NCBI GenBank assembly: GCA_944380275.1
Contig: CALWHB010000001.1
Coordinates: 33,369 to 97,368 of the forward strand
Source: an uncultured Christensenellaceae bacterium
Lineage (GTDB): Bacteria > Bacillota > Clostridia > Christensenellales > UBA3700
Length of the DNA stretch: 64,000 nt
Reading direction: 5' to 3'
Positions within the stretch are counted from its first letter, which is position 1. Every line of letters starts with the position of its first letter. The notes below the pieces were generated by a model. That model worked only from the letters and a program-made list of their open reading frames with translations, had not been told where the DNA came from and made no database searches. This document shows positions 3,001 to 63,907 of the stretch, in pieces. The translations under genes and the position numbers were made by a program.

Positions 3001-6000
3001 TAAAAAGGGCGGTAAATACTTTTGTTTCTCGTAAATGCAACGGACTCTGGGGCATAAGCGAAAGCGGATATTACGCATTTGATGCTGACGCTAAATATCA
3101 GTACAGAGCGCACGGTCTGGGAGAGCTTGCGCTGAGAAACGAAAGCGACAGATGCGTGATAACTCCGTACGCAAGCGCACTCGCACTGAGATATTGCCCT
3201 GAAAAGGCGTTGAGAAACCTGTCTTCTCTTCGCAACAGGGGTGTATACGGCGATTACGGTTTTTACGAGGCTATGGATTTTTCGGCAGGAAGGAATACCG
3301 TTTCTTCAGCTATGACACATCATCAGGGTATGATACTTTGCTCAATTGTAAACGCTTTGAAAGACGATGCGATAATCAGATATTTCATGTCTGACAATGC
3401 GATGGCAGGAGGAAAACTTATGCTTGAAGAAAAACAACTGCCTTGCATAACGAAACGGACAGTAAAACGCGATTTTATCTATTTTGGCAGCATAAACAAT
3501 TATGCTTATACTGTAAATCTTGGTGGATTTCCAAGAATATGCATGCTGCGAGGCAGAGAATATTCAGTGGTTATCGATGATTACGGTTGCGGATATTCGC
3601 AATGGAGAGATAAGGATATAAACGTGTTTTCTACGGATTATTATAAAAACAGCGGAGGTTTCGGATATTTTATCTGCGACGGACAAACTTTTTCGCCTAC
3701 TTTTGCACCTCTGAAAACGGACGGAGGCTCCTGCAAAGTAATATTCGGGAGCAATTTTGCAAAATTTGAAAACTTCAGACACAATTGCAATCTGAAGATT
3801 TTCACTCCGACTGTAGTAAGCGGAGAAGTGAGAGAGTATACGGTAAAGAACGATTCCGATAAACTGAAAAATTACCAATTTGTATTTGCAGAGCGTACCG
3901 CATTGAGCGGACGTGAAGAATATGCGGCGCATCCTGCGTTCTGTGACCTTTTTGTCAACGCACGTTTTGACCGTTCAAAAAATACAGTATATTTGAAAAG
4001 AAAACCGCGAGAAAGCACGGGAGGATTTATTCTTGCCGCCACTATGCTTGCAGGAACTGACGTTTATGCAGAGTGCAACAGACAGAATCTCTTAGGAAGA
4101 AACCGTGACGAGAGCAATCCCGCACTCGACTTCGGCGGAGAAAATCCGTCGCTCGGCGACGTTATCACTCCGTGCCTCGGACTTAAATGCGCGTTTACTC
4201 TCGCACCCGGACAAAGTAAAAAAATTGCTGTGATTATTCAATGTTCAGACGACGAAAGCACTCTCGAAAACAGAGTAAATCAAGTTATATCGACCGATTT
4301 TCTCAGCTATGCGTCAAAACCTGTTGAAGACGGGGACGGCTATGTGTTGTCTAAATATCTGCCTGACGAAGAAAGTGCGCGATTTGCAGGGAAACTGGCG
4401 GCAAAACTTTTGTATGAACCTTATCCTAAATCTGCGCTGCTCGCAAGATTGCAGAATCCACAGACATTGTCTTTCAATGAAAAGACTTTGATACTCGATT
4501 ACGACTCTGTTCCGGGACTTGCAAAAAAAGCCGTAAAGAGTGCGATTGCGTGCAGACTGTGCGGAATAGATTTGAGGCTTGTCGTATTATATGACGAGTC
4601 TGACGGATACAACGGTGAAACTGCCGCAGAAATCTGCAACAGAGTGGGGGTCAGCGACCTGAAAACTCTGCCTTTCGTTACGTTTATAGACAAAAACGCA
4701 TACAAACCGCAAGAGATTAAAAACCTCGTTTTACAGTCGTTTTTCAAATTTTCAGAACGTGAAGAAGACAACGTGCGGCGCAGTGTAATCGCCGTAAGAC
4801 GACGCAACGGACAGGACAAATTTATTCCCTGCAAGCTGCCTGCAGTCTATCGGAGCGGTAACGGCGGATTTGACGAAAACGGCGATTATTACGTATTTTC
4901 TAAACCTCAACTGCCGTATTCTAACGTCGTTTCAACCCTTTCGGGCGGTTTTGTCGCTACCGAAAACGGCGGAGGATTCTGCTATTTCCTCAACAGCCAG
5001 AGTAATAAGTTGTCGGGATGGAGCAATGACCCTGTTGCGGACGCGCCCTATGAAAGACTGCTCGTGTCCGAAGGCGAATACGTCGTCAGAGTCAATAAAC
5101 TTAATCATGGCGGATACGTCAGACACTCCAAGGGAAGTACGACTTACGTATGCCGTACCGAAAAAGCAGGTTATAAAACAGAAAAATATCTGGCAATGGG
5201 AGGAAAAATACAGGTAATCGCTTTGACTGTGTCAAATCACGGAGATAAGACTTTAAGTGCAGAAGTAAGTTATGTTATGTCGCCGTGTCAGGATACAAAG
5301 TCTGACAGAAGTTTTATATTCTGCGAAAAGGAAGGAAAAGACGCATTGAAAGCCGTCAACGTAAAGACAGGGAAAAGTTTTTATCTTCTCGCAAAAGACA
5401 ATGCAGAAATCCTGACGGATTGCGAACAGGTGCTTTCAAGGGGAATAAACGGCTTTAACCCCAAGAGAAGTCAGAGCAGATTCAACAATCCGATTTGCGG
5501 GGCAAGTATTGAAGTCAGAATAGAAAAATCGTCGGAAAAGACGTTGATATTTGCAATTTGCGACAGTGAAGAAAGTCTTGCTTTTGCAAGAATAAACGAT
5601 ATTTCCCTGCAAAGAGAGCAATCAAAGAACAATCTGTCCGATACCGGCAGCGTAAAACTGATAAGCTCTGACAGGTCGCTCGACTTGCTTTTTGCAAACC
5701 TGCCTTACCAGGTGCGTGCAAGCAGAATATGCGGCAAATGCGGTTTCTACCAGGCAGGAGGCGCGATAGGTTTCAGGGACCAGTTGCAGGACTGTCTTGC
5801 GCTGTTGTGGTCAGACCCTGCCGCCGTAAGAGAGCATATTCTGAGATGTGCCGAAAGACAATATATCGAAGGCGACGTAATGCACTGGTGGCATGCACCG
5901 GCTTTCGGAGTCAGAACGAGGATTTCTGACGACAGGCTCTTTTTGCCATACGTCGCCTGCGAGTATGTCGCACATACCGGCGACGACTCGATACTCGGAG

Positions 6001-7094
6001 AAAAATGCGCTTATCTCATCGGTGAACCTCTCGACGATTTGCAGGAGGCAAGACTTGAACACGGCAAGTATGCGGGAGTGGAAGAAAGCCTTCTACTGCA
6101 CATGCAAAGGGCAATAGACAGCGCGCTGGTCAAAGGAGAACACGGACTTCTTCTGATAGGAGGAGGCGACTGGAACGACGCACTCAACGAGATTGGTCTG
6201 AGAGGCAGGGGGGAAAGCGTCTGGCTTACTCAGTTTGCCATTGACGTTATCGAAAAGTTCTGCGCGTATATTGACAAGGAGAGTGCAAAAAGATATTACA
6301 AAATCGCCGCGGACCTCAGATGTGCCGTTCAGAACGCGTTTTTTGACGACAGATGGGCAAGAGCATTTACTGATAAAGGTGAGTGGCTGGGAACTAAAAA
6401 ATCTAAAGGTTGCAAAACCGACCTTATATCTCAATGCTGGGCGCAGATTGTGTTTGCAGGAACGCAGGAACAGAGAAAAAGCGCGATGTGTGCTGCAAAA
6501 TCGCTTATTGACGAAAATGCCGGTGCAGTCAGATTGTTTTCTCCGCCTTTTGACGGCAAAGTGAGATACGGATATATCTCGTCTTATCCGCAAGGGGTAC
6601 GGGAGAACGGCGGACAATATACGCACGCCGCCGTGTGGTATCTGCTCGCGTGCTGTAAAGCAGGCGACAAAGAAGAGGCAAACAGGGTGCTGAAAATGCT
6701 CAATCCGGTCGAAAGATGCAGAGATAAAGATAAAAATGCGGCTTACAAAGCAGAGCCTTACGTGCTTGCAGGCGACGTTTATACAAACGAAGACAACGTC
6801 GGCAGAGCAGGCTGGACGTGGTATACCGGGTCTGCGGCATGGCTTTACAAAGTCATACTTGAAGAAATGCTCGGTATCAAAAAAAGAGGCGACAGCCTGG
6901 TATTTTCTCCGCCGCTACTCGATAAAGCCCAAGATGCGAGAGCGGAATACGTATACGAAGGCACCACCTACGTTATCGGATTTGAAAACTCAGGTATGCG
7001 CGGAATCAGACAAAACGGAGTAAATTATACAAACTGTTCGGTATTGCCGCTCAAAAAAAACAGAGGCAGGATTGAAATAACCGTACTGTTCTGA
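1..7094 (+). CDS. Cyclic beta-1,2-glucan synthase-like giant protein (membrane GT domain + central glucan-processing region + C-terminal GH94-like phosphorylase); 5' end outside the window
   Basis: The reading frame starting at nt 3 has no stop until the TGA at 7092-7094, so the ATG at 213 in the ORF track is probably internal. The protein has TM-rich segments flanking GT2/GT84-like motifs (LLDADSRIG; RRNRWMRGD, a QxxRW-type motif). The C-terminal region carries GGGDWNDALN (nt ~6160-6190), typical of GH94. The overall architecture matches Cgs/NdvB/ChvB. Confidence 0.8.
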   Translation, partial: RNYGKVDAQSVSDAVREFCRYTPLTYGEICALKGAFEVALLKNVEFVCRKIRAVEKAKKRAEEDREPDVRMSKREGYLHFYIAAGKKIPDKFIGRNTEINIENVDFAFAGAMSDYAHIIGNAVSSLKSLGDFMTEQFIVSLSPINGYIERDKSYCESDCASKKQYLAAISELARYFNVGEYAVAKGAFDLAARFDVHFGEIIFNYRYALRSHLKGKYVNKLKRTQYRLDKTLYYCSVFLLQAVFALLSGIFLPPVWLRITVSSLVFVAAYPSCAYIAERVIAFFLPKRPVPRLNYAEIPPEGATAVVVSHYLTNPQSAKKAMDDMLALRAVNDGKNVYFFLLCDLAESDSEENEKDNEIIKELSKGEKAENFAVLVRKRVAIGKKYGAYERKRGAVMDFNECMISGDTSKFRYVSRPFDFKAKYVMLLDADSRIGAGQVRTAVNTIMHPLNAKYNLMTFSSVYSLSSLVTPYSEKFYESAGAQTYCDYDDFYFNLTSKAIFCGKGIYDLEAFHEKTSAVIPDGKVLSHDIIEGAIMNTGSLNLAVAEDAPDTFVSDVSRRNRWMRGDLLLLPFVGKKYCSDGIYSYLILKNAFSYLSPCAALALWIIALSQGYALTFAGVFFACFSAPLASLAISVSQSVSVKSSENFRRILKTVSTAVLDVLLLPFYATVNLAVAARTFFDYIFNSGAMLKWKPFATLQGISGYGRHAATVAPSCMITAILAAVFYGSPAVAVYALLFIATVNFLAFACKKRKDKPVSQQDKAVLTGYARDTYAYFNELSGDSLPCDNIQIYPPKGKSATTSPTNIGYALLAEICAAELGIKTVAAARQKILALIQCCEKLEKWKGHLYNWYDVCTLKPVNPYFVSSVDSGNYIAALISCKGFFKASGFDDDAERCEKLIDETDFSALIDKDKNQLFIGYNVGAKRYEGHYDLLASESRLTAYIACCIGKDSTLWNGFSRVQVNSKGNVLASWSGTAFEYLMPQLFLPDVRNSLITSSVKRAVNTFVSRKCNGLWGISESGYYAFDADAKYQYRAHGLGELALRNESDRCVITPYASALALRYCPEKALRNLSSLRNRGVYGDYGFYEAMDFSAGRNTVSSAMTHHQGMILCSIVNALKDDAIIRYFMSDNAMAGGKLMLEEKQLPCITKRTVKRDFIYFGSINNYAYTVNLGGFPRICMLRGREYSVVIDDYGCGYSQWRDKDINVFSTDYYKNSGGFGYFICDGQTFSPTFAPLKTDGGSCKVIFGSNFAKFENFRHNCNLKIFTPTVVSGEVREYTVKNDSDKLKNYQFVFAERTALSGREEYAAHPAFCDLFVNARFDRSKNTVYLKRKPRESTGGFILAATMLAGTDVYAECNRQNLLGRNRDESNPALDFGGENPSLGDVITPCLGLKCAFTLAPGQSKKIAVIIQCSDDESTLENRVNQVISTDFLSYASKPVEDGDGYVLSKYLPDEESARFAGKLAAKLLYEPYPKSALLARLQNPQTLSFNEKTLILDYDSVPGLAKKAVKSAIACRLCGIDLRLVVLYDESDGYNGETAAEICNRVGVSDLKTLPFVTFIDKNAYKPQEIKNLVLQSFFKFSEREEDNVRRSVIAVRRRNGQDKFIPCKLPAVYRSGNGGFDENGDYYVFSKPQLPYSNVVSTLSGGFVATENGGGFCYFLNSQSNKLSGWSNDPVADAPYERLLVSEGEYVVRVNKLNHGGYVRHSKGSTTYVCRTEKAGYKTEKYLAMGGKIQVIALTVSNHGDKTLSAEVSYVMSPCQDTKSDRSFIFCEKEGKDALKAVNVKTGKSFYLLAKDNAEILTDCEQVLSRGINGFNPKRSQSRFNNPICGASIEVRIEKSSEKTLIFAICDSEESLAFARINDISLQREQSKNNLSDTGSVKLISSDRSLDLLFANLPYQVRASRICGKCGFYQAGGAIGFRDQLQDCLALLWSDPAAVREHILRCAERQYIEGDVMHWWHAPAFGVRTRISDDRLFLPYVACEYVAHTGDDSILGEKCAYLIGEPLDDLQEARLEHGKYAGVEESLLLHMQRAIDSALVKGEHGLLLIGGGDWNDALNEIGLRGRGESVWLTQFAIDVIEKFCAYIDKESAKRYYKIAADLRCAVQNAFFDDRWARAFTDKGEWLGTKKSKGCKTDLISQCWAQIVFAGTQEQRKSAMCAAKSLIDENAGAVRLFSPPFDGKVRYGYISSYPQGVRENGGQYTHAAVWYLLACCKAGDKEEANRVLKMLNPVERCRDKDKNAAYKAEPYVLAGDVYTNEDNVGRAGWTWYTGSAAWLYKVILEEMLGIKKRGDSLVFSPPLLDKAQDARAEYVYEGTTYVIGFENSGMRGIRQNGVNYTNCSVLPLKKNRGRIEITVLF

Positions 7095-45243: not shown

Positions 45244-45274
45244 CGTGTTTACTATAGATTATAAATATACGTTC
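45244..45274 (+). repeat. Extra copy of the lexA-downstream motif (CGTGTTT-N13-AAATATACGTTC) upstream of nadK-argR-recN
   Basis: CGTGTTTACTATAGATTATAAATATACGTTC. It shares GTGTTT and the exact 10-mer ATATACGTTC with copies R1, R2 and R4 at 62.1-62.6 kb. Confidence 0.5.
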
Positions 45275-45339: not shown

Positions 45340-45368
45340 TTGAATATTTATACATTATATTATATAAT
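45340..45368 (+). promoter_or_regulatory. Sigma-A type promoter of nadK-argR-recN
   Basis: TTGAAT (45340-45345), a 17-nt spacer, then TATAAT (45363-45368). The nadK ATG at 45375 begins 6 nt after the -10 with no SD. Confidence 0.5.
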
Positions 45369-51662: not shown

Positions 51663-52148
51663 ATGGAAGAAGACGGCAAAAAAATTTCGACGGCAGAAGA
51701 TATCATAGACGCATACTCGGATATGGTTTTCAGAATTGCCGTTCAATATACGGGCAACAGGCAAGAGGCAGAGGACATAACGCAGGATGCCTTTCTCGCC
51801 ATGCTCAAAAAAATGCCGTTCAACAGCGCGGAACATGCCAAAAGATGGCTTATTCGCGTAACTATAAACAAGTGCAAAGACTATTTCAAATCTGCAAGAA
51901 GGAAAAATCTTCCTCTTGACGAAAATCTGAGCGCATCTTATGTCGGCGAAAACGAAAGGCTTGAAGAGCTTGAAAAGCTTGAACCTCTTGACAGAAGTAT
52001 CATATACCTTTTCTATTACGAAGGATACAGCGCAAAGGAAATAGCAAAAATGACGGGAAAAACAAGAAATGCCGTCAATATAAGACTGAGCAGAGCAAGA
52101 AATACTCTGCGAGAATTGTTGGAGGAGGGCGACAGATATGACGGATAA
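51663..52148 (+). CDS. ECF-type RNA polymerase sigma factor (sigma-70 regions 2 and 4)
   Basis: Region 2 is YSDMVFRIAVQYTGNRQEAEDITQDAFL. Region 4 is LEPLDRSIIYLFYYEGYSAKEIAKMTGKTRNAVNIRLSRAR. The ATG at 51663 lies 6 nt after AGGAAG; an alternative TTG lies at 51624. Confidence 0.88.
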   Translation: MEEDGKKISTAEDIIDAYSDMVFRIAVQYTGNRQEAEDITQDAFLAMLKKMPFNSAEHAKRWLIRVTINKCKDYFKSARRKNLPLDENLSASYVGENERLEELEKLEPLDRSIIYLFYYEGYSAKEIAKMTGKTRNAVNIRLSRARNTLRELLEEGDRYDG

Positions 52149-54369
52149 CAAATATGCGAGAGCAATGTCGGAAATAACGCTTTCTCCAAACAGAAAAAAT
52201 TTAATCAAACAAGCCGTAAAACGCAACCTTCAATATAAAAAAGCAGATTGCAACGCTCCGGTAATCAGAAGTAAATCCAAAGCTGCAACGTTTATCAAGA
52301 TAGCTACGCCGACAGTTGCCGCCGCGCTTATCGCTATAGTGCTTACAGTCATACTTATGCCTGCAACGATTCCGACTGTCGACGTAACCAATCCCGTTTC
52401 CGTACAGGAATACGAATATATTTCAAACGTCGTTGAATACGCACAGTATCTTCCCAACGCAGAGTTGCTTTCAGGCTCGGAAAAATCCGCAACCGGACTT
52501 TCAGGCAATTTAAGCAACCCAAACATTACAAACGACGCAAGATACGACGAGGCTTACCAACTTCAGGACGGACAGCTTGAATTTGACATAGATGATTACA
52601 GGACTTTCAACGACTCGCTTGCAATCGTAAGCTCTACAGGCGTATCCGGCGATTTGACCGTTTACGACATCAAAAAGGAAATAATTTTTGCCGTCGACGT
52701 GATTCCCGGATATGACCAGTGGTTCACTATGCCTTACAATGCAGACTATCTCAGCGAAAGCGACGCAAGATTGTATACAAATAACAGCTACAAGTTGTCT
52801 TACGACAAACAAAACGGCGTAATTAAAATGGTAAGGCTTTCTCAGAAACACAGAGGAGAAACTTATAACCCGTCAACATCTGTTTTTTACGGCAACGCTT
52901 ACACAAGGCAGCTGCTTGAAGTAAGTTATTATATCAACGGAGAAGGAAAAGAAGTCGTTGACTGCAAAGTTACTGACTTCCTTTGCGTGCAGGAAGGAGA
53001 GTATTATCCTCTTTTTGCTCAAAGACTCATAAACGTCAGGGACACTTCAGCGACCAAATATTCTGTCGCGTATATGCTCGATTATGACCTTGTAAAGGAA
53101 TTTCCGGGCAACAACACACTGTCTGCATACGACCTCTCTCAAAAATTCGATTACGGCATAAACGTAATCGCCGTGCAGATGGATTATTCTTCTGACAAAG
53201 ACATTGAAATATTAAAAACACAATACACGACTCAGGATGCTCATTGCGTTCAGCCTACAATGACGGCAATCGATTATTACAAAAAAACTGCGTCCGACGT
53301 GACTTACTTCACATCATGCTGGGATAACAGCGCAATAACTTATTTGTATAAAATACATTTAAACGATTTTGTAAACGTATCACAGCAATCCGACGGAAAA
53401 TATGCGGCTGATTCAGAAGGTATGAAAAAATTCTTCGGCTATCTTTTCCCTCTGAGGAGCAGACTCGTATGTCCCGTATGCGAAGATAAAGGATATACCG
53501 ACGACGGAATTTTCAAAGGATGCTTTCACGGTAAACACTTCGACAATATAGTAAATTCCAAAAGTCAGCTGCTCAGCAACAATGAGGCTTATCTTTCGGA
53601 CGCAGAGGTATTGTATGACGATATAGCTCAAAAATATTCGTCTTTAAACTCTGTTCTTTCTCTTGACGCACGACCGGCTTTCGACGGCGATGGAAATTAT
53701 TGCTTTGAAAATTCAATAAACGATTTTATCAGGCAGTCCAGCACAGAATACTACGGCAAATACGTCTTGTCTGCCGGTTATGCCGCAATGGACGAAGAAG
53801 TCAATAAGAATTCAACGATTATCGGAGAAGAATATCTTGCAGAATTAATGAAAGGGAAATATACTTTTACTTACGACATAAAAGATTACAGTACGGTAAA
53901 TAACGGAAATATCGATTATGTCGTGGAGCAAAAAGTAAATTTAAAAGAAATCAATCCGCAAAGCGAATATTACGTTGCGTTGATAGTAGAAAAAACGGAC
54001 GGTTCGGGGGAATATGCGGTGATAGACAAAATTCAGATTACTGATACCGACAAAACCTACAAACTGAAAGGCAGCGTTTCAATACCTCTGATGCTCGACA
54101 TGATTCTTAACGTTGCACCCGTATTCAAAGAAGGCGACACGTTCAGACTTGCAATCGCCGTACTTGAACAAAACGCCGACGACATAAATGTGATTTCGCA
54201 TACAAAAGCCGTTGAAAACGACAAAACCTCTGAAGAAATCCTCTACAAAGAAGGTGTTGTCAGGCTGGACGGAATAAATTATTCTTATCTCGTGGACAAA
54301 GGGGACAATAACAATATCGTCGTCGTAATGCTTGAAAATCACGTGGATTATATTTATCCTGTTCAATAA
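52138..54369 (+). CDS. Putative anti-sigma factor: short cytoplasmic N-terminus, one TM, ~660-aa extracytoplasmic domain of unknown fold
   Basis: It overlaps the sigma gene by 11 nt. The N-terminal ~60 aa are followed by the TM FIKIATPTVAAALIAIVLTVILM. I recognise no motif in the remainder except a Cys/His cluster, CPVCEDKGYTDDGIFKGCFHGKH. Confidence 0.6.
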   Translation: MTDNKYARAMSEITLSPNRKNLIKQAVKRNLQYKKADCNAPVIRSKSKAATFIKIATPTVAAALIAIVLTVILMPATIPTVDVTNPVSVQEYEYISNVVEYAQYLPNAELLSGSEKSATGLSGNLSNPNITNDARYDEAYQLQDGQLEFDIDDYRTFNDSLAIVSSTGVSGDLTVYDIKKEIIFAVDVIPGYDQWFTMPYNADYLSESDARLYTNNSYKLSYDKQNGVIKMVRLSQKHRGETYNPSTSVFYGNAYTRQLLEVSYYINGEGKEVVDCKVTDFLCVQEGEYYPLFAQRLINVRDTSATKYSVAYMLDYDLVKEFPGNNTLSAYDLSQKFDYGINVIAVQMDYSSDKDIEILKTQYTTQDAHCVQPTMTAIDYYKKTASDVTYFTSCWDNSAITYLYKIHLNDFVNVSQQSDGKYAADSEGMKKFFGYLFPLRSRLVCPVCEDKGYTDDGIFKGCFHGKHFDNIVNSKSQLLSNNEAYLSDAEVLYDDIAQKYSSLNSVLSLDARPAFDGDGNYCFENSINDFIRQSSTEYYGKYVLSAGYAAMDEEVNKNSTIIGEEYLAELMKGKYTFTYDIKDYSTVNNGNIDYVVEQKVNLKEINPQSEYYVALIVEKTDGSGEYAVIDKIQITDTDKTYKLKGSVSIPLMLDMILNVAPVFKEGDTFRLAIAVLEQNADDINVISHTKAVENDKTSEEILYKEGVVRLDGINYSYLVDKGDNNNIVVVMLENHVDYIYPVQ

Positions 54370-56905: not shown

Positions 56906-58663
56906 TTAATTCACGTGATAATGACTGCTTTTGTAAAGCCAGTAATATATCGCAATGGCTATAGGGATAATCAAAAGGAAGACGAGAGGTATTATCACCG
57001 GACGCACCATTGAATTGATGTTGTCTATCCTTGCATTGCATGCGAGAAATCCTATCAGAACTATGAGAATAACCGCATTTATAATGACTATCAACGAGTT
57101 AATTACAGCATTTTTTGCATTGAAATTTGCTTTTATACGTTTTTGCGGGTCAACGCAATATGCTACGAACATCGCAATCGGATAGAGAAGTCCCAGTGCA
57201 AGAAAACCTGCCAGCGCGCCGAAGTTGTGTCCATATGTCGGCGCAGTAGAGAAATACGCGATAAGTACACCGACTGCATAAACTATATATGTAAGTATCG
57301 AACTGTCGCGGTTCAGTTTATTGCTGAAATAATACTGATTTATATAGTATTCACTCGTATTTTTCTTCACATAAGGACGCAGATTGTAACCTTCTGCCAT
57401 CATCTTTGATTTCAGTTCTGACGTGGAAAGATAATCTATCTTTTCGTCATCGCTGCTTATAGAGGAAGAATTTGACGATGGGGTGACCTGAGTCATGGGG
57501 ACGCTGTAAATGCTGTCGAAACTGTCAATATAATTTACAGTCTGTCTGTTGGCATAATCGTCATATCTGCGGTCATCTGCAATGTCAGTGTTATAAGTCT
57601 TTACGTCAGGTTTCTTTTCTTCGACGGGTTTTCTTTCGTAAAGACGTTCAAATGCCTCAGTTCTTACTTCTTCGTCGCATTTTTCCTCTTTCGCATCGTA
57701 TACGGTGTAATTGCCTTCTTTTGAAGAATCTGACAATTTTTCTTCAGAACGTTCATCGCCGTAAAACACGGGTTGCGAGGTTGCAACAGAAGGAGCATCG
57801 TAATCCTCAACTTCTTCAACGTCTTCTTCCTGTTCTTCGTCGTAAATCTGTTGCTGTATTGAATTGGTTACATCGTCGATTTTCTCGTTTTTCAAGAAGG
57901 TATCAGTTTCGTCTGAAGAGTATACGTGTTCTTTTCCTTCAGAATACTCTTCAGGACGTTCGCAACCGTAACCGTCGCGATTTCCAGCATAGTTTCTTTC
58001 ACCGTAAAATTCTTCACGATATTCTGAATAACCGTTCTCCGAAGGAACGGCAGAGCGGTTCTGAGGATAAGTTGCGCCCAGATATTCATGCGGTATTTTA
58101 TCGTATTCGTCCACGGGAGGAGCAACGACTTCGGGAGGAATAACGTAGTCCTCAGACGGATTGAACATATTGTCGTTGTCGTCAGAAACGTTGTAAGACC
58201 TGCTTGTTTCGGCATTGACATTGACTTCGCTGTCAGAATCTTCATCGACAGAAGATTTGTTTCTTCTCGTAAGCGGTCTGAAATTGGACGGGTCAAAAGG
58301 CGCAACATGTTTTTCAGGGTCAAATTCTTCGTCCGAAAGCAGGCTGTCAATTATTGTGCGGCTAAACTCCCACTGATGCTGGTCGCTTTCGAGAAAAGCA
58401 CGACCGGCAGGCTGAAGAGAATAATAAACTCTTTGCGCCCCGTTAGACGTATCGCCTTTATAAGAACGTATGTATCCTTGTTTTTCGAGTCGCTTGAGGC
58501 AACTGTAAAGGGTAGGCTGTTTGAGAGTATACATACCTTTACTTTTGTCTTTGATTTCATTGAGAATTTCATATCCGTACTTATCCTCAAGATAAAGCGA
58601 CTTGAGAATTATTGTATCGACATGTCCTCTAATCAAATCAATGTTGACATTGGAATTATCCAT
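56906..58663 (-). CDS. PadR-family winged-helix regulator fused through a ~300-aa acidic low-complexity linker to a C-terminal multi-TM domain
   Basis: N-terminus LIRGHVDTIILKSLYLEDKYGYEILNEIKDKSKGMYTLKQPTLYSCLKRLEKQGYIRSY...RVYYSLQPAGRAFLE is PadR-like. The middle is D/E/Y/S-rich. The C-terminal ~150 aa contain about 4 TM helices. Confidence 0.8.
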   Translation of the reverse strand: MDNSNVNIDLIRGHVDTIILKSLYLEDKYGYEILNEIKDKSKGMYTLKQPTLYSCLKRLEKQGYIRSYKGDTSNGAQRVYYSLQPAGRAFLESDQHQWEFSRTIIDSLLSDEEFDPEKHVAPFDPSNFRPLTRRNKSSVDEDSDSEVNVNAETSRSYNVSDDNDNMFNPSEDYVIPPEVVAPPVDEYDKIPHEYLGATYPQNRSAVPSENGYSEYREEFYGERNYAGNRDGYGCERPEEYSEGKEHVYSSDETDTFLKNEKIDDVTNSIQQQIYDEEQEEDVEEVEDYDAPSVATSQPVFYGDERSEEKLSDSSKEGNYTVYDAKEEKCDEEVRTEAFERLYERKPVEEKKPDVKTYNTDIADDRRYDDYANRQTVNYIDSFDSIYSVPMTQVTPSSNSSSISSDDEKIDYLSTSELKSKMMAEGYNLRPYVKKNTSEYYINQYYFSNKLNRDSSILTYIVYAVGVLIAYFSTAPTYGHNFGALAGFLALGLLYPIAMFVAYCVDPQKRIKANFNAKNAVINSLIVIINAVILIVLIGFLACNARIDNINSMVRPVIIPLVFLLIIPIAIAIYYWLYKSSHYHVN

Positions 58664-58723: not shown

Positions 58724-59950
58724 ATAAAACGCGTTTTTAATTATGAAAAATTAAAATTATTATAAAAATTGCTATAAATTAGATATTTTTTTATAATAAT
58801 TTAGCCAAAAATTTGCTTTTATAACACAAAACGGCATATAAATATATTTAATAAACAAAAGAGAATATTATCAGCTTATCAAAGCGTTCTTATATTGAAT
58901 AACATTAGATTTGTTTTCTGCAATCAAGCCACATACAAAGAATTTTAAAACAAATTTAAATGAACCGTCTTTAAATCATTATATACTATAAGAAAACACA
59001 ATAAAAGAGAATATTGTTGCGATACAAGAGAAGAATACAATGAATTTCACCTTGAAACACGAAAAAAGCAGTAAAATCGCATAAATCAGCACAGATTAAT
59101 CACTAATTTGTATTATTAAATTTTTCCTAAATAGCAAAAAAATATCAAATATTCCTAAACCAAGCGGGGTATACAAATCTGAATTGTTTTGTTGAATATC
59201 TTATTTATCTCAATCAGCCTGTCGGGCATAAGCAACAACCGCCGGTCATGCCTTCATAATAATATAAAAAATATGGATTATTTATTACTGCGGTTATGAT
59301 AATTTCAAAAATATTTATCAAAAACAGAGCATAAACCCTTTTTTAAACTATTCGCAAAACACAACTTTTGCGAAATGATAGTAGTAAAAAAGTCAATGAA
59401 AGGGGTTTATTTGACTGATTTTGCAATTTTTTGTTATTTTTCAATTTTATCGCTTTATCGCATCAATTTTCAAAATATTATCTCAGCTGAATTTTTTATA
59501 TTCAAAATCCGGTTCTAAGCCGTATATTAATTATTATCAAAATTTAGCTACTGATTTTTTGTTGCAAAAAACTTTCGGCTTGTTTTTTAAATTTATTTAA
59601 ATGAATTGCTTGCTGATTAGTTTTAGTATATTTCAGCTTATTATTTTAATTTTGTTTTACAATTCTGACTTTGCGATTAAATATTGTCCGGCGTGATGCT
59701 GACTTTTTTATGCCCTGTAATCACCTCATTTATCAGCTCTTTAAAATGGCGCGACTTGCAGTAAAAATTTTAATAACGAAGTTTTTCTTTAAATACGCTT
59801 TGAAATTGAGCAAATTGCTTTTTACTTTGTCAAAACATTTTAGCAATCTATAAACTAATTTACTCTGATAATATAGTTATAACTTTAAACGTATGTTTTA
59901 CTGTCAAGCCGTTTGATTGCGCCTATTTGTTCGCATAATCCTTAAAATTG

Positions 59951-60088: not shown

Positions 60089-61153
60089 ATGGCAGAAAAA
60101 ACGTATTTTGAGCAAAGAAATATAGACAACACGAGAAAATTGAGAGAAATAAGGCGCGATTTGCCTCCGCTTTGTAATGAATTTTTTGTGGGCATAGAAA
60201 CGCGCACTTCTGTACTCACCAGACTTTCTTACGCGTACGATTTGAGGATTTTTTTTAATTATCTATATACTGAAACCACTCAATTTGCCTCTTGCGACGC
60301 AAAAACTTTTGATTTCAACGCTCTTTGCAAAGTTACAACGTCGGATATCGAACTTTTTATGGAATATCTGAGTTACTATAAATTTGACGGCAAAGATTAT
60401 GTCAATACAGAAAAAACAAAAGCCCGTAAACTTGCGTCCATAAAGTCGTTTTTTAAATATTTTTACAATAAAGACAAAATACCTGCAGACCCGGCATCAA
60501 AAGTGCTTACTCCAAAAATCCACGACAAACCTATCGTACGGCTCGATTCAGACGAAGTATCTCAACTCCTCGACGAAGTGGAATCCGGGGCAAATCTGCC
60601 GTCAAGAAGACAGGAATCTTTTCACGAAAAAACAAAAGTACGAGATTTGGCGATTATTACGCTTTTTCTCGGCACAGGAATACGTATCAGTGAGCTTGTG
60701 GGACTTGACGTATCAGACATCGATTTCAATATAAACGGATTTAAAGTTACGCGTAAAGGCGGAAATCAGACAATCCTCTATTTCTCTCAGGAAGTAGCCG
60801 ACGCTCTGATTGCCTATCTTGACGAACGCTCCTCCGACCCTGCGCTCGACAACGAAACGGCTCTCTTCCTCTCTTTGCAAAAAAAACGTATGAGCGTACG
60901 CAGCGTTGAAAAACTTGTGAAAAAATACGCAAAACTTATCACTCCGCTCAAAAAAATCACTCCGCATAAGCTGCGCAGCACTTACGGCACAGAACTGTAT
61001 CAGGAAACCGGCGATATTTACGTCGTCGCAGAAGTTCTCGGACATCGCGACATAAACACGACAAAACGTCATTACGCGGCAATCAGCGACGACATAAAGC
61101 GCAGCGCGGCTCAAAAAGTTACTTTGAGAGATAAAAACAAGAAAAACGACTGA
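60089..61153 (+). CDS. Tyrosine site-specific recombinase (XerC/XerD/phage-integrase family)
   Basis: SAM-like N-terminal core-binding domain. The catalytic domain has GTGIRISELVGL (Arg), HKLRSTYGT (His-x-x-Arg) and LGHRDINTTKRHY (His...Tyr). RBS AAAGAGG lies upstream. Confidence 0.88.
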   Translation: MAEKTYFEQRNIDNTRKLREIRRDLPPLCNEFFVGIETRTSVLTRLSYAYDLRIFFNYLYTETTQFASCDAKTFDFNALCKVTTSDIELFMEYLSYYKFDGKDYVNTEKTKARKLASIKSFFKYFYNKDKIPADPASKVLTPKIHDKPIVRLDSDEVSQLLDEVESGANLPSRRQESFHEKTKVRDLAIITLFLGTGIRISELVGLDVSDIDFNINGFKVTRKGGNQTILYFSQEVADALIAYLDERSSDPALDNETALFLSLQKKRMSVRSVEKLVKKYAKLITPLKKITPHKLRSTYGTELYQETGDIYVVAEVLGHRDINTTKRHYAAISDDIKRSAAQKVTLRDKNKKND

Positions 61154-61180: not shown

Positions 61181-61209
61181 TTGCAAAATGTGAACATATG
61201 TGCTAAAAT
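61181..61209 (+). promoter_or_regulatory. lexA promoter
   Basis: TTGCAA (61181-61186), a 17-nt spacer, then TAAAAT (61204-61209). Confidence 0.5.
61192..61203 (+). promoter_or_regulatory. Cheo/SOS-box-like LexA operator inside the lexA promoter spacer
   Basis: GAACATATGTGC has one mismatch to the Firmicute consensus GAAC-N4-GTTC. It lies between the -35 and -10, consistent with autoregulation. Confidence 0.45.
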
Positions 61210-61236: not shown

Positions 61237-61866
61237 ATGGCTAACGCGAAAACACAGGAAAAACTTGACAAGACGCTGGCTTTTATTAAGGAATTTGTTA
61301 AGAAAAACAGTTACCCTCCCAGCGTGCGCGAGATATGCAAAGAGGTCGGTTTCAAATCAACCGCATCGGTACAATATTATCTTGACAAACTTGAAGAACA
61401 GAATCTTATTAGACGTTCTTTGTCAAAAAACAGGACTATTGAACTTGTAAACAACGACGACGATACCCCTTCTTTTGCAACTCTCCCGCTTTTGGGCAAC
61501 ATTGCAGCCGGTCAACCGCTGTTTGCCGGCGTAAATAACGATGAAAGCGTGCATGTTCCTGCAGACTACTTCAATCTTGACGACGAAATGTTCTGTCTAA
61601 CCGTCAAAGGCGAAAGTATGCGCGACGTAGGCATACTAAACGGCGACTGCGTGCTTATCAAAAGACAAAGCACCGCGCGTGAAGGCGAAATAGTCGTTGC
61701 GCTGATTGACAACAACGAGGTTACTCTGAAGAGATTTTTCAAAAAAGACGGAAAAATCGTACTGCACCCCGAAAATTCCGCTATGGAAGACATTATTGTC
61801 GACAATACTCACGATTTTGCGATACTCGGAGTTGCAAAAGGACTCATGCGAAACAGAATATTCTGA
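61237..61866 (+). CDS. lexA: SOS repressor LexA
   Basis: N-terminal wHTH (YPPSVREICKEVGFKSTASVQYYLDKLEEQNLIRR), cleavage site region NIAAGQP, the S24 catalytic Ser in VKGESMRDVGILNGD, and the Lys in TLKRF. Confidence 0.95.
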   Translation: MANAKTQEKLDKTLAFIKEFVKKNSYPPSVREICKEVGFKSTASVQYYLDKLEEQNLIRRSLSKNRTIELVNNDDDTPSFATLPLLGNIAAGQPLFAGVNNDESVHVPADYFNLDDEMFCLTVKGESMRDVGILNGDCVLIKRQSTAREGEIVVALIDNNEVTLKRFFKKDGKIVLHPENSAMEDIIVDNTHDFAILGVAKGLMRNRIF

Positions 61867-61886
61867 AATACGGCTCTCAACGAAAA

Positions 61887-61912
61887 ATCACCGCTTTTGC
61901 GGTGATTTTTTT
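61887..61912 (+). terminator. Rho-independent terminator after lexA
   Basis: Stem ATCACCGC/GCGGTGAT with loop TTTT, followed by TTTTTT. Confidence 0.85.
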
Positions 61913-62002
61913 AAATTTTGCAATCCATCAGATATAACCTTTGACCATACATTTTGAGGTTTGAATAAAATTTATCACTCATTAAGTTCTACTTTCTATA
62001 TG

Positions 62003-62037
62003 CCCGAATTTGTCATTTTAAATACGAATATACGGTT
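62003..62037 (+). repeat. Motif copy R0 (degenerate)
   Basis: CCCGAATTTGTCATTTTAAATACGAATATACGGTT. It keeps CCCG..TTTGT and the core GAATATACG. Confidence 0.55.
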
Positions 62038-62120
62038 GTTTTAACTGATTTTATATAAATTTAAGCATAATCGATATTGACGTTATTCGCAATTTTGTGC
62101 CGTAAAAATCAAATTGCATA

Positions 62121-62150
62121 TCGACATCATAAACCATAAATCGTTATAAT
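62121..62150 (+). promoter_or_regulatory. Candidate promoter reading into the repeat array
   Basis: TCGACA (62121-62126), an 18-nt spacer, then TATAAT (62145-62150). The predicted start lies about 10 nt before copy R1. Speculative. Confidence 0.3.
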
Positions 62151-62165
62151 CCTCATACGCTGCTA

Positions 62166-62196
62166 CCCGTGTATGTTTTGTGCTGAATATACGTTT
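62166..62196 (+). repeat. Motif copy R1
   Basis: CCCGTGTATGTTTTGTGCTGAATATACGTTT. It matches R2 at 24 of 31 positions in an ungapped alignment. Confidence 0.8.
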
Positions 62197-62277
62197 GCCT
62201 TTAAAACAAAAGAAACATATATAAAACTTTTTTGATAATTTAGCGATTCTGTATAAAATCTTATTTTTTGCCGCGGA

Positions 62278-62308
62278 CCCGTGTTTGTTACACATTGAAT
62301 ATACGTTC
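62278..62308 (+). repeat. Motif copy R2
   Basis: CCCGTGTTTGTTACACATTGAATATACGTTC. I use this copy as the reference. Confidence 0.8.
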
Positions 62309-62399
62309 GTATTAAAAAACGTGTTTATTTGAAAATTAATTTCCATATTTAACTTATTTTCCTTATTTTGGACCAAAAACTAATAGTTTGCGAGTCTTG

Positions 62400-62430
62400 T
62401 CCGTGTTTGTTTTGCGTTGAATATATGTTC
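62400..62430 (+). repeat. Motif copy R3
   Basis: TCCGTGTTTGTTTTGCGTTGAATATATGTTC. It matches R2 at 25 of 31 positions, ungapped. Confidence 0.8.
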
Positions 62431-62576
62431 ATGTTCAGATAATAATGTTTAGAACGCATATCTTAAACGCGGAAATCTGATATTAAACGCCTTAAAAATA
62501 AACAAATATATGTTCGTTTTGTAAATTAATAAATATTTAAACAGTTTAAAAAATCAATTATCGCAAGCATATATAT

Positions 62577-62610
62577 CTTTGTTTGTTTTTAAAACAATGA
62601 ATATACGTTC
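62577..62610 (+). repeat. Motif copy R4 (spacer 4 nt longer)
   Basis: CTTTGTTTGTTTTTAAAACAATGAATATACGTTC. It has the TGTTTGTT block and the exact core TGAATATACGTTC. Confidence 0.65.
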
Positions 62611-62612
62611 AT

Positions 62613-62652
62613 AAAAAATCCTGCAATCTTTGACGCATCTAAAGACTGCAGG
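62613..62652 (-). terminator. Rho-independent terminator of the YnbB-like gene
   Basis: On the minus strand, CCTGCAGTCTTT..loop..AAAGATTGCAGG forms a 12-bp stem with one mismatch and is followed by TTTTTT (plus-strand A-run 62613-62619). Confidence 0.75.
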
Positions 62653-62674
62653 ACAGTATAATTTTCAATCTTAT

Positions 62675-63907
62675 TTATTTTCTCAACACGCTTTGCAGAC
62701 AATACATTGCGGCGATTTTTACGTGTTCGTAAGTTAATCCGCCTTGCAGATAGGCAATATACGGTTTCTTTATCGGAGAATCTGCAGAAAGTTCTATCGA
62801 CGCGCCGGCAACGAAAGTTCCTGCAGCCATAATTACCTGATGCTCATATCCGGGCATATCCCACGGGAAAGGAGTTACGTTGCTGTCTACAGGCGACGCT
62901 TTCTGAACGGCACGACAGAACGCTATCAGTTCGTCTTCGGTATCGAACATTATTGAGCGTATTATGTCTTTACAGTCACTTCCTGGGGTTGGCATCGTCT
63001 TATATCCTACAGAATTAAATACTTCGCCGAACAAGACGCTGCCTTTAATTGCCTGGATTGTTACGTGAGGAGCAAGGAAAAGCCCCTGGTAAAACTCTCT
63101 GTATCCGTATGCGTAAGAACCGACCTCCATACCTATAGAGGGAGAAGTGAGTCTGTATGCCACTTTGTCGACGCACTCTTTTTTACCGCATATATAGCCG
63201 CCGCTGGGAGCAATGCCTCCGCCTATATTCTTTATAAGCGAGCCTACGGCAATATCCGCGCCGACCTGAGTAGGTTCTATAACATCTACAAACTCGCCAT
63301 AGCAGTTGTCGCACATTACGACGACGTCCGGTTTGATTGATTTGACGAAAGCCGCCATTTTACCTATTTCTCTTACGTCGAGAGCGTCGCGCCACTCGTA
63401 TCCTCTCGACCTTCCGACAAACACCAATTTTGTCTTATCGCTTATTGCGCGCTTTATGCCTTCATAATCAAACGCGCCGTCGACAAGGTCAACCTGTTTA
63501 TAGCTCACTTTGAAATCTTTAAGAGAGCCGGTACCCTCGCCTGAAATCACTTCTTTGAGAGTATCGTAAGGCGCGCCGCTTACGGCGAGCATTTCGTCGC
63601 CGGGACGAAGTATGCCGTAAAGCGCAAGCGTAAGCGCATGAGTTCCCGAAACTATCAGCGGAGAAACAATCGCCGATTCCGCACCGAAAACTTCTGCAAA
63701 AACTTTACAAAGAGTATCTCTGCCTATATCGTCGTAACCGTAACCGTTGGTTTGAGCGAAATGTCTTTGTCCAACGTTATTGTTGCGAAAAGCGTCAAGC
63801 ACTTTATTCTGATTGACAAGCGCGATGCGCTCAAGTTTTGAAAACTGCTCTCTGCAACGCGATTCTGCCTGTTCTACTATGTCGGTTATTTCTTTTTCAA
63901 AATTCAT
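62675..63907 (-). CDS. PLP-dependent methionine gamma-lyase / cystathionine beta-lyase family protein (YnbB, 'aluminium resistance' family)
   Basis: FRNNNVGQRHFAQTNGYGYDDIGRDTLCKVFAEVFGAESAIVSPLIVSGTHALTLALYGILRPGDE is characteristic of the YnbB family as I recall it. Length is 410 aa. Confidence 0.8.
   Translation of the reverse strand: MNFEKEITDIVEQAESRCREQFSKLERIALVNQNKVLDAFRNNNVGQRHFAQTNGYGYDDIGRDTLCKVFAEVFGAESAIVSPLIVSGTHALTLALYGILRPGDEMLAVSGAPYDTLKEVISGEGTGSLKDFKVSYKQVDLVDGAFDYEGIKRAISDKTKLVFVGRSRGYEWRDALDVREIGKMAAFVKSIKPDVVVMCDNCYGEFVDVIEPTQVGADIAVGSLIKNIGGGIAPSGGYICGKKECVDKVAYRLTSPSIGMEVGSYAYGYREFYQGLFLAPHVTIQAIKGSVLFGEVFNSVGYKTMPTPGSDCKDIIRSIMFDTEDELIAFCRAVQKASPVDSNVTPFPWDMPGYEHQVIMAAGTFVAGASIELSADSPIKKPYIAYLQGGLTYEHVKIAAMYCLQSVLRK

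Follow-up and report, generated by a model that had tools for sequence, protein, structure and literature searches.

We analysed 64,000 nucleotides (nt) of DNA from an uncultured Christensenellaceae bacterium (contig CALWHB010000001.1, positions 33,369 to 97,368), referred to below as the window. The convergent intergenic gap at 61867-62674, between lexA on the + strand and a ynbB-like gene on the - strand, houses an array of a two-part motif. This array is real, conserved, LexA-box-like, restricted to a single orientation and to this locus, and associated with the xer-lexA gene pair across lineages. The interpretation we favour, with a probability of a little under one half (about 0.45), is that LexA-type operators, combined with an accessory element, form a cluster peculiar to this lineage, and that this cluster belongs to a conserved module made up of a dif-like site, the recombinase gene xer, and lexA. 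LexA binding, like any function of the array, is something we infer from sequence.

The tract has a GC content of 28% and is bounded by a terminator on each side. Five copies lie between 62164 and 62614, all on the + strand: three contain both parts of the motif, one is a bare core, and in one the parts are loosely spaced. Each full motif consists of an upstream block (A) and a downstream block (B), and the scores listed below, in bits, are those of position weight matrices (PWMs) for the two blocks.

61882..61911, + strand: intrinsic terminator of lexA, the left edge of the tract
62003..62041, + strand: R0, decayed first copy, with CCCGAAT, a 16-nt spacer and CGAATATACGGTT (B score 17.4)
62121..62150, + strand: sigma-70-like promoter match TCGACA-18-TATAAT, 16 nt upstream of R1
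62164..62200, + strand: R1, composite, with A block TACCCGTGTATGTTT, 12-nt spacing and B block TGAATATACGTTTGCCT (A score 22.6, B score 22.0)
62232-62259, + strand: second promoter match, TTGATA-16-TAAAAT, 19 nt upstream of R2
62276..62312, + strand: R2, composite and best copy, GACCCGTGTTTGTTA, N12, TGAATATACGTTCGTAT (B score 26.3)
62398..62434, + strand: R3, composite, TGTCCGTGTTTGTTT, N12, TGAATATATGTTCATGT, from repeat search, core scan and PWM
62452-62463: inverted core-like sequence GAACGCATATCT
62503..62519, + strand: B-only copy (bare core), CAAATATATGTTCGTTT (PWM score 18.1)
62577..62614, + strand: R5, with a degenerate A block (CTTTGTTTGTT), a 16-nt spacer and B block TGAATATACGTTCATAA (B score 22.9)
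62619..62653, - strand: terminator hairpin of ynbB, followed by a T-run on that strand, the right edge of the tract
62675-63907, - strand: ynbB-like gene for a pyridoxal phosphate (PLP) enzyme

These features agree in position with a preliminary description of the window, which had reported copies at 62003, 62166, 62278, 62400 and 62577, a bare core at 62504-62516, the inverted core and the promoter match ahead of R1. It had also seen no credible open reading frame (ORF) in the gap, and no ORF there is conserved in relatives.

The refined motif reads (TTR)CCCGTGT-N12-GAAWATAYGTTCRYAT. Block A, (TTR)CCCGTGT(A/T)(G/T)(G/A)TT, is thus CCCGTGT followed by a T-rich stretch, with TTG or TTA ahead of it in 11 of 20 copies, while block B is CGAAWATAYGTTCG (fuller consensus CGAAWATAYGTTCRYAT). 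The GTGT-to-GAA spacing is fixed at 12 nt: R1, R2 and R3 all read CCGTGT, 12 nt, GAA without exception, which replaces the variable spacing of 6 to 10 nt first proposed, and longer spacers with degenerate upstream blocks are found only at 62003 and 62577. On the - strand, B reads CGAACRTATWTTCG, that is, the Firmicute LexA box CGAAC-N4-GTTCG with one half intact and one changed base in the other: GAAC is preserved in the first half-site, and ATTC or TTTC replaces GTTC in the second. The early observation of a LexA-box-like core next to lexA, one base away from the Firmicute box, therefore stands. All 28 copies from seven species of the genus differ from CGAACRNRYGTTCG at a single position, and all 28 read CGAAWATAYGTTCG, with one half-site intact, where a Firmicute LexA operator, a dyad of 12-14 bp, may have one or two mismatches in one half-site. 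The same tolerance is known from Clostridium difficile LexA operators, which keep GAAC in one half while the other half varies (PMC4234289).

Within the window, the core TGAATATACGTTC was found 12 times when up to two mismatches were allowed, against 2.2 +/- 1.7 times in shuffled sequences, and not one of 100 shuffles gave as many. The four best matches (zero or one mismatch; 62184, 62296, 62418 and 62598, spanning 62184-62610) are all on the + strand, and a repeat search of the window returned families of 35 and 42 nt. Similarity between copies is 69-80%, the centre varies, and spacings range from 43 to 159 nt within the genus. This similarity, the variable centre and the non-uniform spacings rule out a CRISPR array. 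Helical phasing of the boxes is likewise unsupported (Rayleigh test on 31 adjacent distances, r=0.28, p ~0.08 at 10.5 bp, the distances being non-independent).

The nearest genomes are metagenome-assembled genomes (MAGs) of uncultured Christensenellaceae or Christensenellales, including 'Candidatus Ornithoclostridium'. As near-identical contigs of the same species are uninformative, our genus comparison comprises the window and six sister species (loci L004-L009), whose YnbB and LexA proteins are 84-89% and 89-96% identical to those of the window, respectively. The gene order, with xer and lexA facing an opposite-strand ynbB-miaA-mutL-mutS-miaB cluster that converges on lexA, is kept across Christensenellales. 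A non-coding tract of 640-970 nt occupies the same place in all six sister species, and measures 70-190 nt in more distant relatives. Across the seven species, the tract cannot be aligned outside the motifs. Motif columns are 72-84% identical among sister species and 50-61% identical in the two alignments that include the window, as opposed to 29-43% for the other columns; in L004 and L007, one orthologous copy matches perfectly over 37 nt. As this difference shows, purifying selection acts on the motifs, in line with the early view that the motif, rather than a tandem unit, is what is conserved. The comparison with relatives that had been proposed also reveals a single plan behind varying copy numbers: a first copy decayed in B, two or three full A+B copies, and one to three B-only copies towards ynbB, all in one orientation.

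The A and B matrices were further scanned over ~190 kb of DNA from the same genus (the window, L004-L009, L093-L096 and L002). Only the tract gives high scores: outside it, the B matrix has no match above the lowest score of a training copy (14.3), which favours an operator cluster. A dispersed repeat of the repetitive extragenic palindrome (REP) or miniature inverted-repeat transposable element (MITE) type, which the preliminary description had kept in view, finds no support in this DNA. It had also pointed to a seventh copy ahead of nadK-argR-recN. This copy is present at 45244-45274, but it scores 13 bits as compared with 18-26 for tract copies, its spacing is 14, its A block is weak, and AAA replaces GAA. 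Nor is it conserved in four sister species (L093-L096), so that the proposed link to recN is unsupported. Over ~900 kb of other loci, the B matrix gives 31 matches of at least 13 bits in 22 loci, mostly in regions upstream of lexA or xer in Christensenellales. The exact composite pattern has no match in viral contigs and nine in metagenome contigs, none of them near lexA, xer or ynbB, and the tract shows no similarity to phages or plasmids. A mobile-element origin was rejected on these grounds.

The genes and sites upstream of the tract that matter for its interpretation are as follows.

59348..59377: perfect dif-like site CTATTCGCAAAA-CACAAC-TTTTGCGAAATG, two inverted arms around a 6-bp centre, located ~720 bp ahead of xer
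59924..59941, + strand: conserved half-B box TATTTGTTCGCATAATCC (half-box TTTGTTCGCATAATCC), 10 nt upstream of the xer -35 element
59952-57 and 59975-80: xer promoter, TTGTCA and TATAAT
60089..61153, + strand: xer, Xer-type tyrosine recombinase of 354 aa, closest to XerS (186 bits against a cutoff of 267)
61181..61209, + strand: lexA promoter TTGCAA-17-TAAAAT, with the autoregulatory box GAACATATGTGC (61192-61203) in its spacer
61237..61866, + strand: lexA, with Pfam domains LexA_DNA_bind and Peptidase_S24 and a match to NCBIfam TIGR00498 (185 bits, cutoff 111)

Boxes of the same kind accompany xer and lexA in other lineages, preceding the promoter of one or the other gene by 50-550 nt. In loci L010-L025, whose LexA is ~55% identical, the lexA promoter holds the box GAACATTTGTGC and two upstream boxes, GAATATTTGTTT and GAACATAAGTTT, and the xer promoter is preceded by a B box, for example CGAATATATGTTCAT; both observations favour a LexA site and tie the boxes to the xer-lexA module. 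One relative (L097; LexA 69% identical) has three B boxes and one reversed box, without A block, over 550 nt between xer and lexA. In L021/L098 and L099 (LexA 63-65% identical), four composite units and additional B-only copies are located between dif and xer, the units reading GTGTTTGTT-N7-GAATATWTGTTC or CCGTGT-N12-GAATTWTTGTTC. A lexA promoter from elsewhere in Clostridia (L034) pairs CGAATGTTTGTTCG with the canonical AGAACATTTGTTCG, again in support of a LexA site. Since the boxes track the xer-lexA pair while their position shifts, the protein that binds them would be encoded there and would most simply be LexA; we regard this as the strongest argument for our interpretation. In the window genus, the block at 59924-59941 corresponds to the right half of a B box plus its flank. 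Distant relatives have a full B box where the genus keeps this half-box, which suggests that xer is under the same control.

Two further observations were made in relatives. At ~7515 in L004, L008 and L009 (oriented with xer and lexA on the + strand), a perfect or near-perfect canonical LexA box, GAACAT(A/T)TGTTC, lies towards the 3' end of the miaA coding sequence, ~285 nt before the start of ynbB, and related forms are present in L005-L007 and L016; it could reflect coding constraint or an internal, LexA-controlled ynbB promoter. In addition, L021 and L099 carry a small gene of ~100 aa (KCKITVMRVARYDDL...CNDGFRPVSF) in the lexA-ynbB gap.

Several observations weigh against LexA as the binding protein. 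Firstly, C is the base expected to be preferred by a LexA dimer at position 5 of the box, and no array box has it in any lineage (28 boxes in the genus, plus those of L021, L097, L098 and L099); A at the mirror position is likewise absent, so that the asymmetry is invariant. The halves are therefore not interchangeable, and the boxes of an array share one direction, which a symmetric dimer site does not need. Secondly, LexA leaves both the A block and its fixed spacing unexplained. Thirdly, the array of the window genus has no downstream gene and no consistent promoter: it lies between two convergent terminators instead of adjoining a damage-inducible promoter. Fourthly, the box in the lexA promoter scores below 11 with the B matrix, and the recN operon lacks a conserved B box, lexA and nadK-argR-recN being the only SOS promoters of the genus in view. 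All sister species share the very same lexA promoter, which hardly varies across the order; the GTGC half of its box overlaps the extended -10 element TGCTAAAAT, and the box deviates at a base other than that of B because this base belongs to the extended -10, a promoter constraint. Finally, the comparison with Paenibacillus is not wholly favourable. Among the 34 mostly Paenibacillus loci that the same search returned as a control (150 boxes in lexA regions), each locus shows four or five canonical boxes upstream of lexA, usually GAAC...GTTT or GAAC...GTTC, which supports the general pattern, but the equivalent of the B variant (GAAC...ATTC) accounts for only three of the 150 boxes. The recognition helix of LexA, in the N-terminal domain (61237-61450), is KSTASVQYYLDKLEEQN here (STASVQYYL or STASAKYYL in the order) versus ASSSTVHGHLDRLEKKG (SSSTVHGHL) in Paenibacillus, and its wing is SKNRTIE versus TKPRAIE. 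Because the helices differ, the DNA specificity of Christensenellales LexA may have diverged from that of Paenibacillus.

Under the LexA interpretation, B boxes would be occupied by LexA dimers, and the A block would be an accessory element offering a second contact or forming a short hairpin. In sister lineages, the equivalent cluster lies directly upstream of the xer or lexA promoter and would set SOS control there. In the window genus, these upstream boxes are reduced to one operator and one half-box, with the cluster located downstream of lexA between convergent terminators. There it would most likely serve LexA as a group of auxiliary or decoy sites, or as a roadblock that depends on LexA, and less likely as a classical promoter operator; weak SOS promoters may also be among its roles. 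A precedent for a composite LexA site is known from Bacillus thuringiensis, where a full box and an adjacent half-site are bound by LexA with a phage co-factor, gp7 (PMC4551915). As for A itself, it contains no recognisable LexA half-palindrome. Comparison by eye with known consensuses also showed it to be unfit, in sequence or spacing, as a sigma-H, sigma-54, extracytoplasmic function (ECF) or sporulation-sigma element, and as a DnaA, PurR, cre, Rex, NrdR, TnrA or SinR site. A literature search on the exact box sequence returned nothing relevant.

A different account, which we consider possible but unlikely, views the array as a set of small SOS-controlled transcription units. Each A+B motif would be a weak promoter with a -35 element TTGCCC/TTTACC, a spacer of 16-17 nt, and a -10 element GAAWAT inside the LexA box, and DNA damage would free short non-coding transcripts or antisense transcription towards ynbB-miaA-mutL-mutS. 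This would explain why position 5 is never C, because the -10 must be A/T-rich, and the box of the lexA promoter is similarly bent by its overlapping extended -10. Several copies do reach 8 of 12 promoter positions (TTGCCC/TTTACC, 16-17 nt, GAAAAT/AATATT), and the TTG or TTA found ahead of CCCGTGT in more than half of the copies agrees with a -35. Yet the -35 is absent from R1 and R2 of the window, from the L021 units and from the B-only copies. With upstream ACACG(G), A can also form a short hairpin followed by a T-rich run. The pairing is weak and non-universal (mean stem 5.14 versus 4.54 +/- 0.19 in shuffles) and is clear in three of the four L099 units, where ACACGGAT or ACACAGAC lies upstream of CCGTGT or its TGTGTG variant. 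The sequence between motifs cannot be aligned between close species, which argues against any conserved RNA product. Of the Rfam families, only a tRNA reached its gathering score in the whole window, a permissive scan of 58.6-62.75 kb gave sub-threshold matches only, mostly on the lexA terminator, and the seven tracts contain no conserved small ORF with a ribosome-binding site. For the latter reason, a small SOS peptide gene of the YneA/SosA/SidA type was dropped. An outside sigma-70 promoter ahead of every unit was also rejected: such matches precede R1 and R2 but are inconsistent in sister species. Their function is doubtful, because sister species lack them consistently at the same relative position.

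The surroundings of the array bear on other explanations. The dif-like site is the sole strongly conserved block in a 1.4-kb AT-rich spacer. Across loci its consensus is CTATTCGCAAAA-N6-TTTTGCGAA(A/T)(T/A)G, located 0.3-0.8 kb upstream of the recombinase gene. We found it in L097-L100 and, among loci L004-L029 of Christensenellales, in 21 of 26; of the five that lack it, four are short or truncated near the recombinase gene. Cumulative GC skew climbs for 57 kb to a maximum at 57-59 kb, after which it declines steadily for 12 kb (when extended to 71.9 kb with L002), and gene orientation flips from + to - at this peak. As the skew peak and the orientation switch coincide near the dif-like site, they suggest that the replication terminus lies at or near it. 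In every lineage, arrays are found on the same side of dif as xer and are directed away from dif. The opposite side, in most Christensenellales loci that are long enough, holds the gene of a PadR-type protein (56906-58663, - strand, 585 aa). Its N-terminal domain is a PadR winged helix, a long acidic linker of low complexity follows, and the C-terminal region crosses the membrane several times. This protein may be membrane-tethered and bind DNA.

With this arrangement, the boxes could instead be bound by a terminus protein other than LexA, acting as a polar, Ter-like fork barrier or as a terminus anchor or organiser; one candidate is the PadR-type protein, which is syntenic with dif across the order. 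We judge this rather improbable. The array does lie 2.8-3.3 kb from a conserved dif-like site and at the turning point of cumulative GC skew, its orientation relative to dif is constant, and its motif, like RTP-Ter sites, has two parts and is inherently asymmetric. However, an opposed array beyond dif was found in no locus, many relatives have both dif and the PadR-type protein but no array, and the distance between array and dif varies from 0.3 to 3.3 kb. Nor does the motif contain the ATGT-N8-ACAT dyad of PadR-type regulators, and a LexA box accounts for the box sequence more economically. A more specific version, in which the array is a polar element of the terminus (a one-way fork barrier or anchor) beside dif, built from asymmetric LexA-box-like sites and bound by LexA or the PadR-type protein, rather than a set of transcriptional operators, seems to us quite improbable. 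We know of no description of a replication-termination system in this clade of Clostridia.

The preliminary description had also offered the copies as targets of the neighbouring recombinase, and they might be arm-type or accessory sites through which this Xer-type protein controls recombination at dif. Arrays adjoin xer, and lie between dif and xer in L021 and L099; direct comparison further shows that the dif arm CTATTCGCAAAA and the flanks of B share the short words CGAATA and TTCGCA. We nevertheless consider this very unlikely, as the strongest B positions (ACGTTC) are unmatched in the dif arm, and the motif lacks the paired 11-bp inverted arms around a 6-8 bp centre that the recombinase's own site at 59348-59377 has exactly. 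Two genes separate dif from the array in the window genus, and Xer-family proteins of this size are devoid of an arm-binding domain; the recombinase has SAM-like and catalytic Pfam domains only. An integron attC analogy was rejected as well, because there is no RYYYAAC/GTTRRRY pair and the recombinase is no integron integrase (61 bits against a cutoff of 265).

We attach hardly any weight to ArgR operators or an ArgR titration site. The left half of the box in the window species is TGAAT, an ARG-box half-site, as had been pointed out, but sister species have CGAA there and the right half is always GTTC(G), so that their core is CGAA...GTTCG instead of TGAAT-N4-ATTCA and ArgR binding is unsupported. 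The genuine ARG box of the genus is a different sequence, the palindrome TTGAATATTTATACATT at 45340-45356 (TTGAATATTTATTCATT in sister species). It overlaps the nadK-argR-recN promoter TTGAAT-17-TATAAT (region to 45368), is conserved in L093-L096, and is unscored by the B matrix. This conserved overlap implies that ArgR would autoregulate an operon that also holds recN.

It is similarly hard to believe that the array has no function and is what remains of a decayed gene, a repeat dispersed over the genome, or a pattern that AT-rich DNA produced by chance, despite its low GC content, the visible decay of its first and last copies and the small gene found between lexA and ynbB in relatives of the L021/L099 type, since motifs are kept across seven species while their flanks are randomised, the homologous tracts show no similarity to the L021 gene, which argues against the decayed gene raised earlier, the core is enriched over shuffles with no other high-scoring copy in the ~190 kb of genus DNA, and the viral, phage and plasmid searches gave no match, while the nine metagenome matches had no lexA, xer or ynbB nearby.

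Elsewhere in the window, a 2293-aa ORF occupies the left end (213-7094, + strand), and a 743-aa ORF (52138-54369, + strand) has no Pfam or NCBIfam match.

If LexA binds the array, the tract would be an operator cluster conserved without a target gene, with boxes held sub-optimal, oriented one way and joined to a second element. It would then point to roles of LexA beyond promoter occlusion, such as buffering of free repressor, a roadblock or an architectural function, or to a new LexA partner. If LexA does not bind it, the boxes would define a new DNA-binding specificity tightly tied to dif. The array also marks a compact module, conserved across Christensenellales at the apparent terminus, that comprises the dif-like site, xer, lexA and the gene for the membrane-anchored PadR-type protein and would tie SOS control to chromosome-dimer resolution in little-studied gut bacteria.

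Known systems resemble parts of this locus. The dif-like site and its recombinase, as distinct from the array, look like a single-recombinase Xer/dif system, of which we know no description in Christensenellales. As in XerS/difSL and XerH/difH, a Xer-type recombinase (here of 354 aa) stands beside a conserved site with two inverted arms of 11-12 bp and a 6-bp centre, at a GC-skew turning point. The sequence of the site differs from difSL, the protein scores under the XerS family cutoff (186 versus 267) and the site lies 0.3-0.8 kb from the gene.

As a group of putative LexA sites with no gene to regulate, the array recalls datA of Escherichia coli, a titration or decoy locus for the global regulator DnaA. 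Its five to seven sites are few, however, beside a likely pool of hundreds of LexA molecules, and to our knowledge no datA-like titration locus has been described for LexA. Polar fork barriers provide another parallel: Bacillus subtilis RTP-Ter, with its two-part A/B sites, and the Schizosaccharomyces pombe RTS1 and rDNA barrier arrays. They share with the array two-part, asymmetric sites in the same orientation, near a terminus or dif. The array differs in having no opposed set, no RTP or Tus homologue nearby and the look of a LexA box, and in being absent from many relatives.

The array also resembles the LexA clusters of Bacillales, so that the preliminary description's statement of no described equivalent was too strong: several GAAC-N4-GTTC-type boxes beside lexA are standard there, as seen in the 34 control loci, and the cluster of L097 upstream of lexA is comparable. 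In B. subtilis, the multi-operator cluster is the divergent lexA-yneA region. Bacillales boxes are ~30 bp apart, lie in the promoter region, can face either way, and differ chiefly at the outer base (GTTT). By contrast, array boxes are 43-263 bp apart, always carry an inner-base change (GAAW), are often accompanied by an A block and, in the window genus, are located downstream of lexA in a convergent gap and in one orientation. The P1 operator of phage GIL01, with dinBox1 and the half-site dinBox1b, likewise has a non-canonical element next to a full box, a short and constant distance away, and occupancy of dinBox1b needs more than LexA alone, namely gp7 (PMC4551915). The array differs from it in that A has no recognisable LexA half-site, no gp7-like gene is evident, and the element is chromosomal and repeated three to seven times. 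What sets the array apart from known LexA clusters is its non-promoter position, its invariant asymmetry, its strict single orientation and the A element attached to its boxes.

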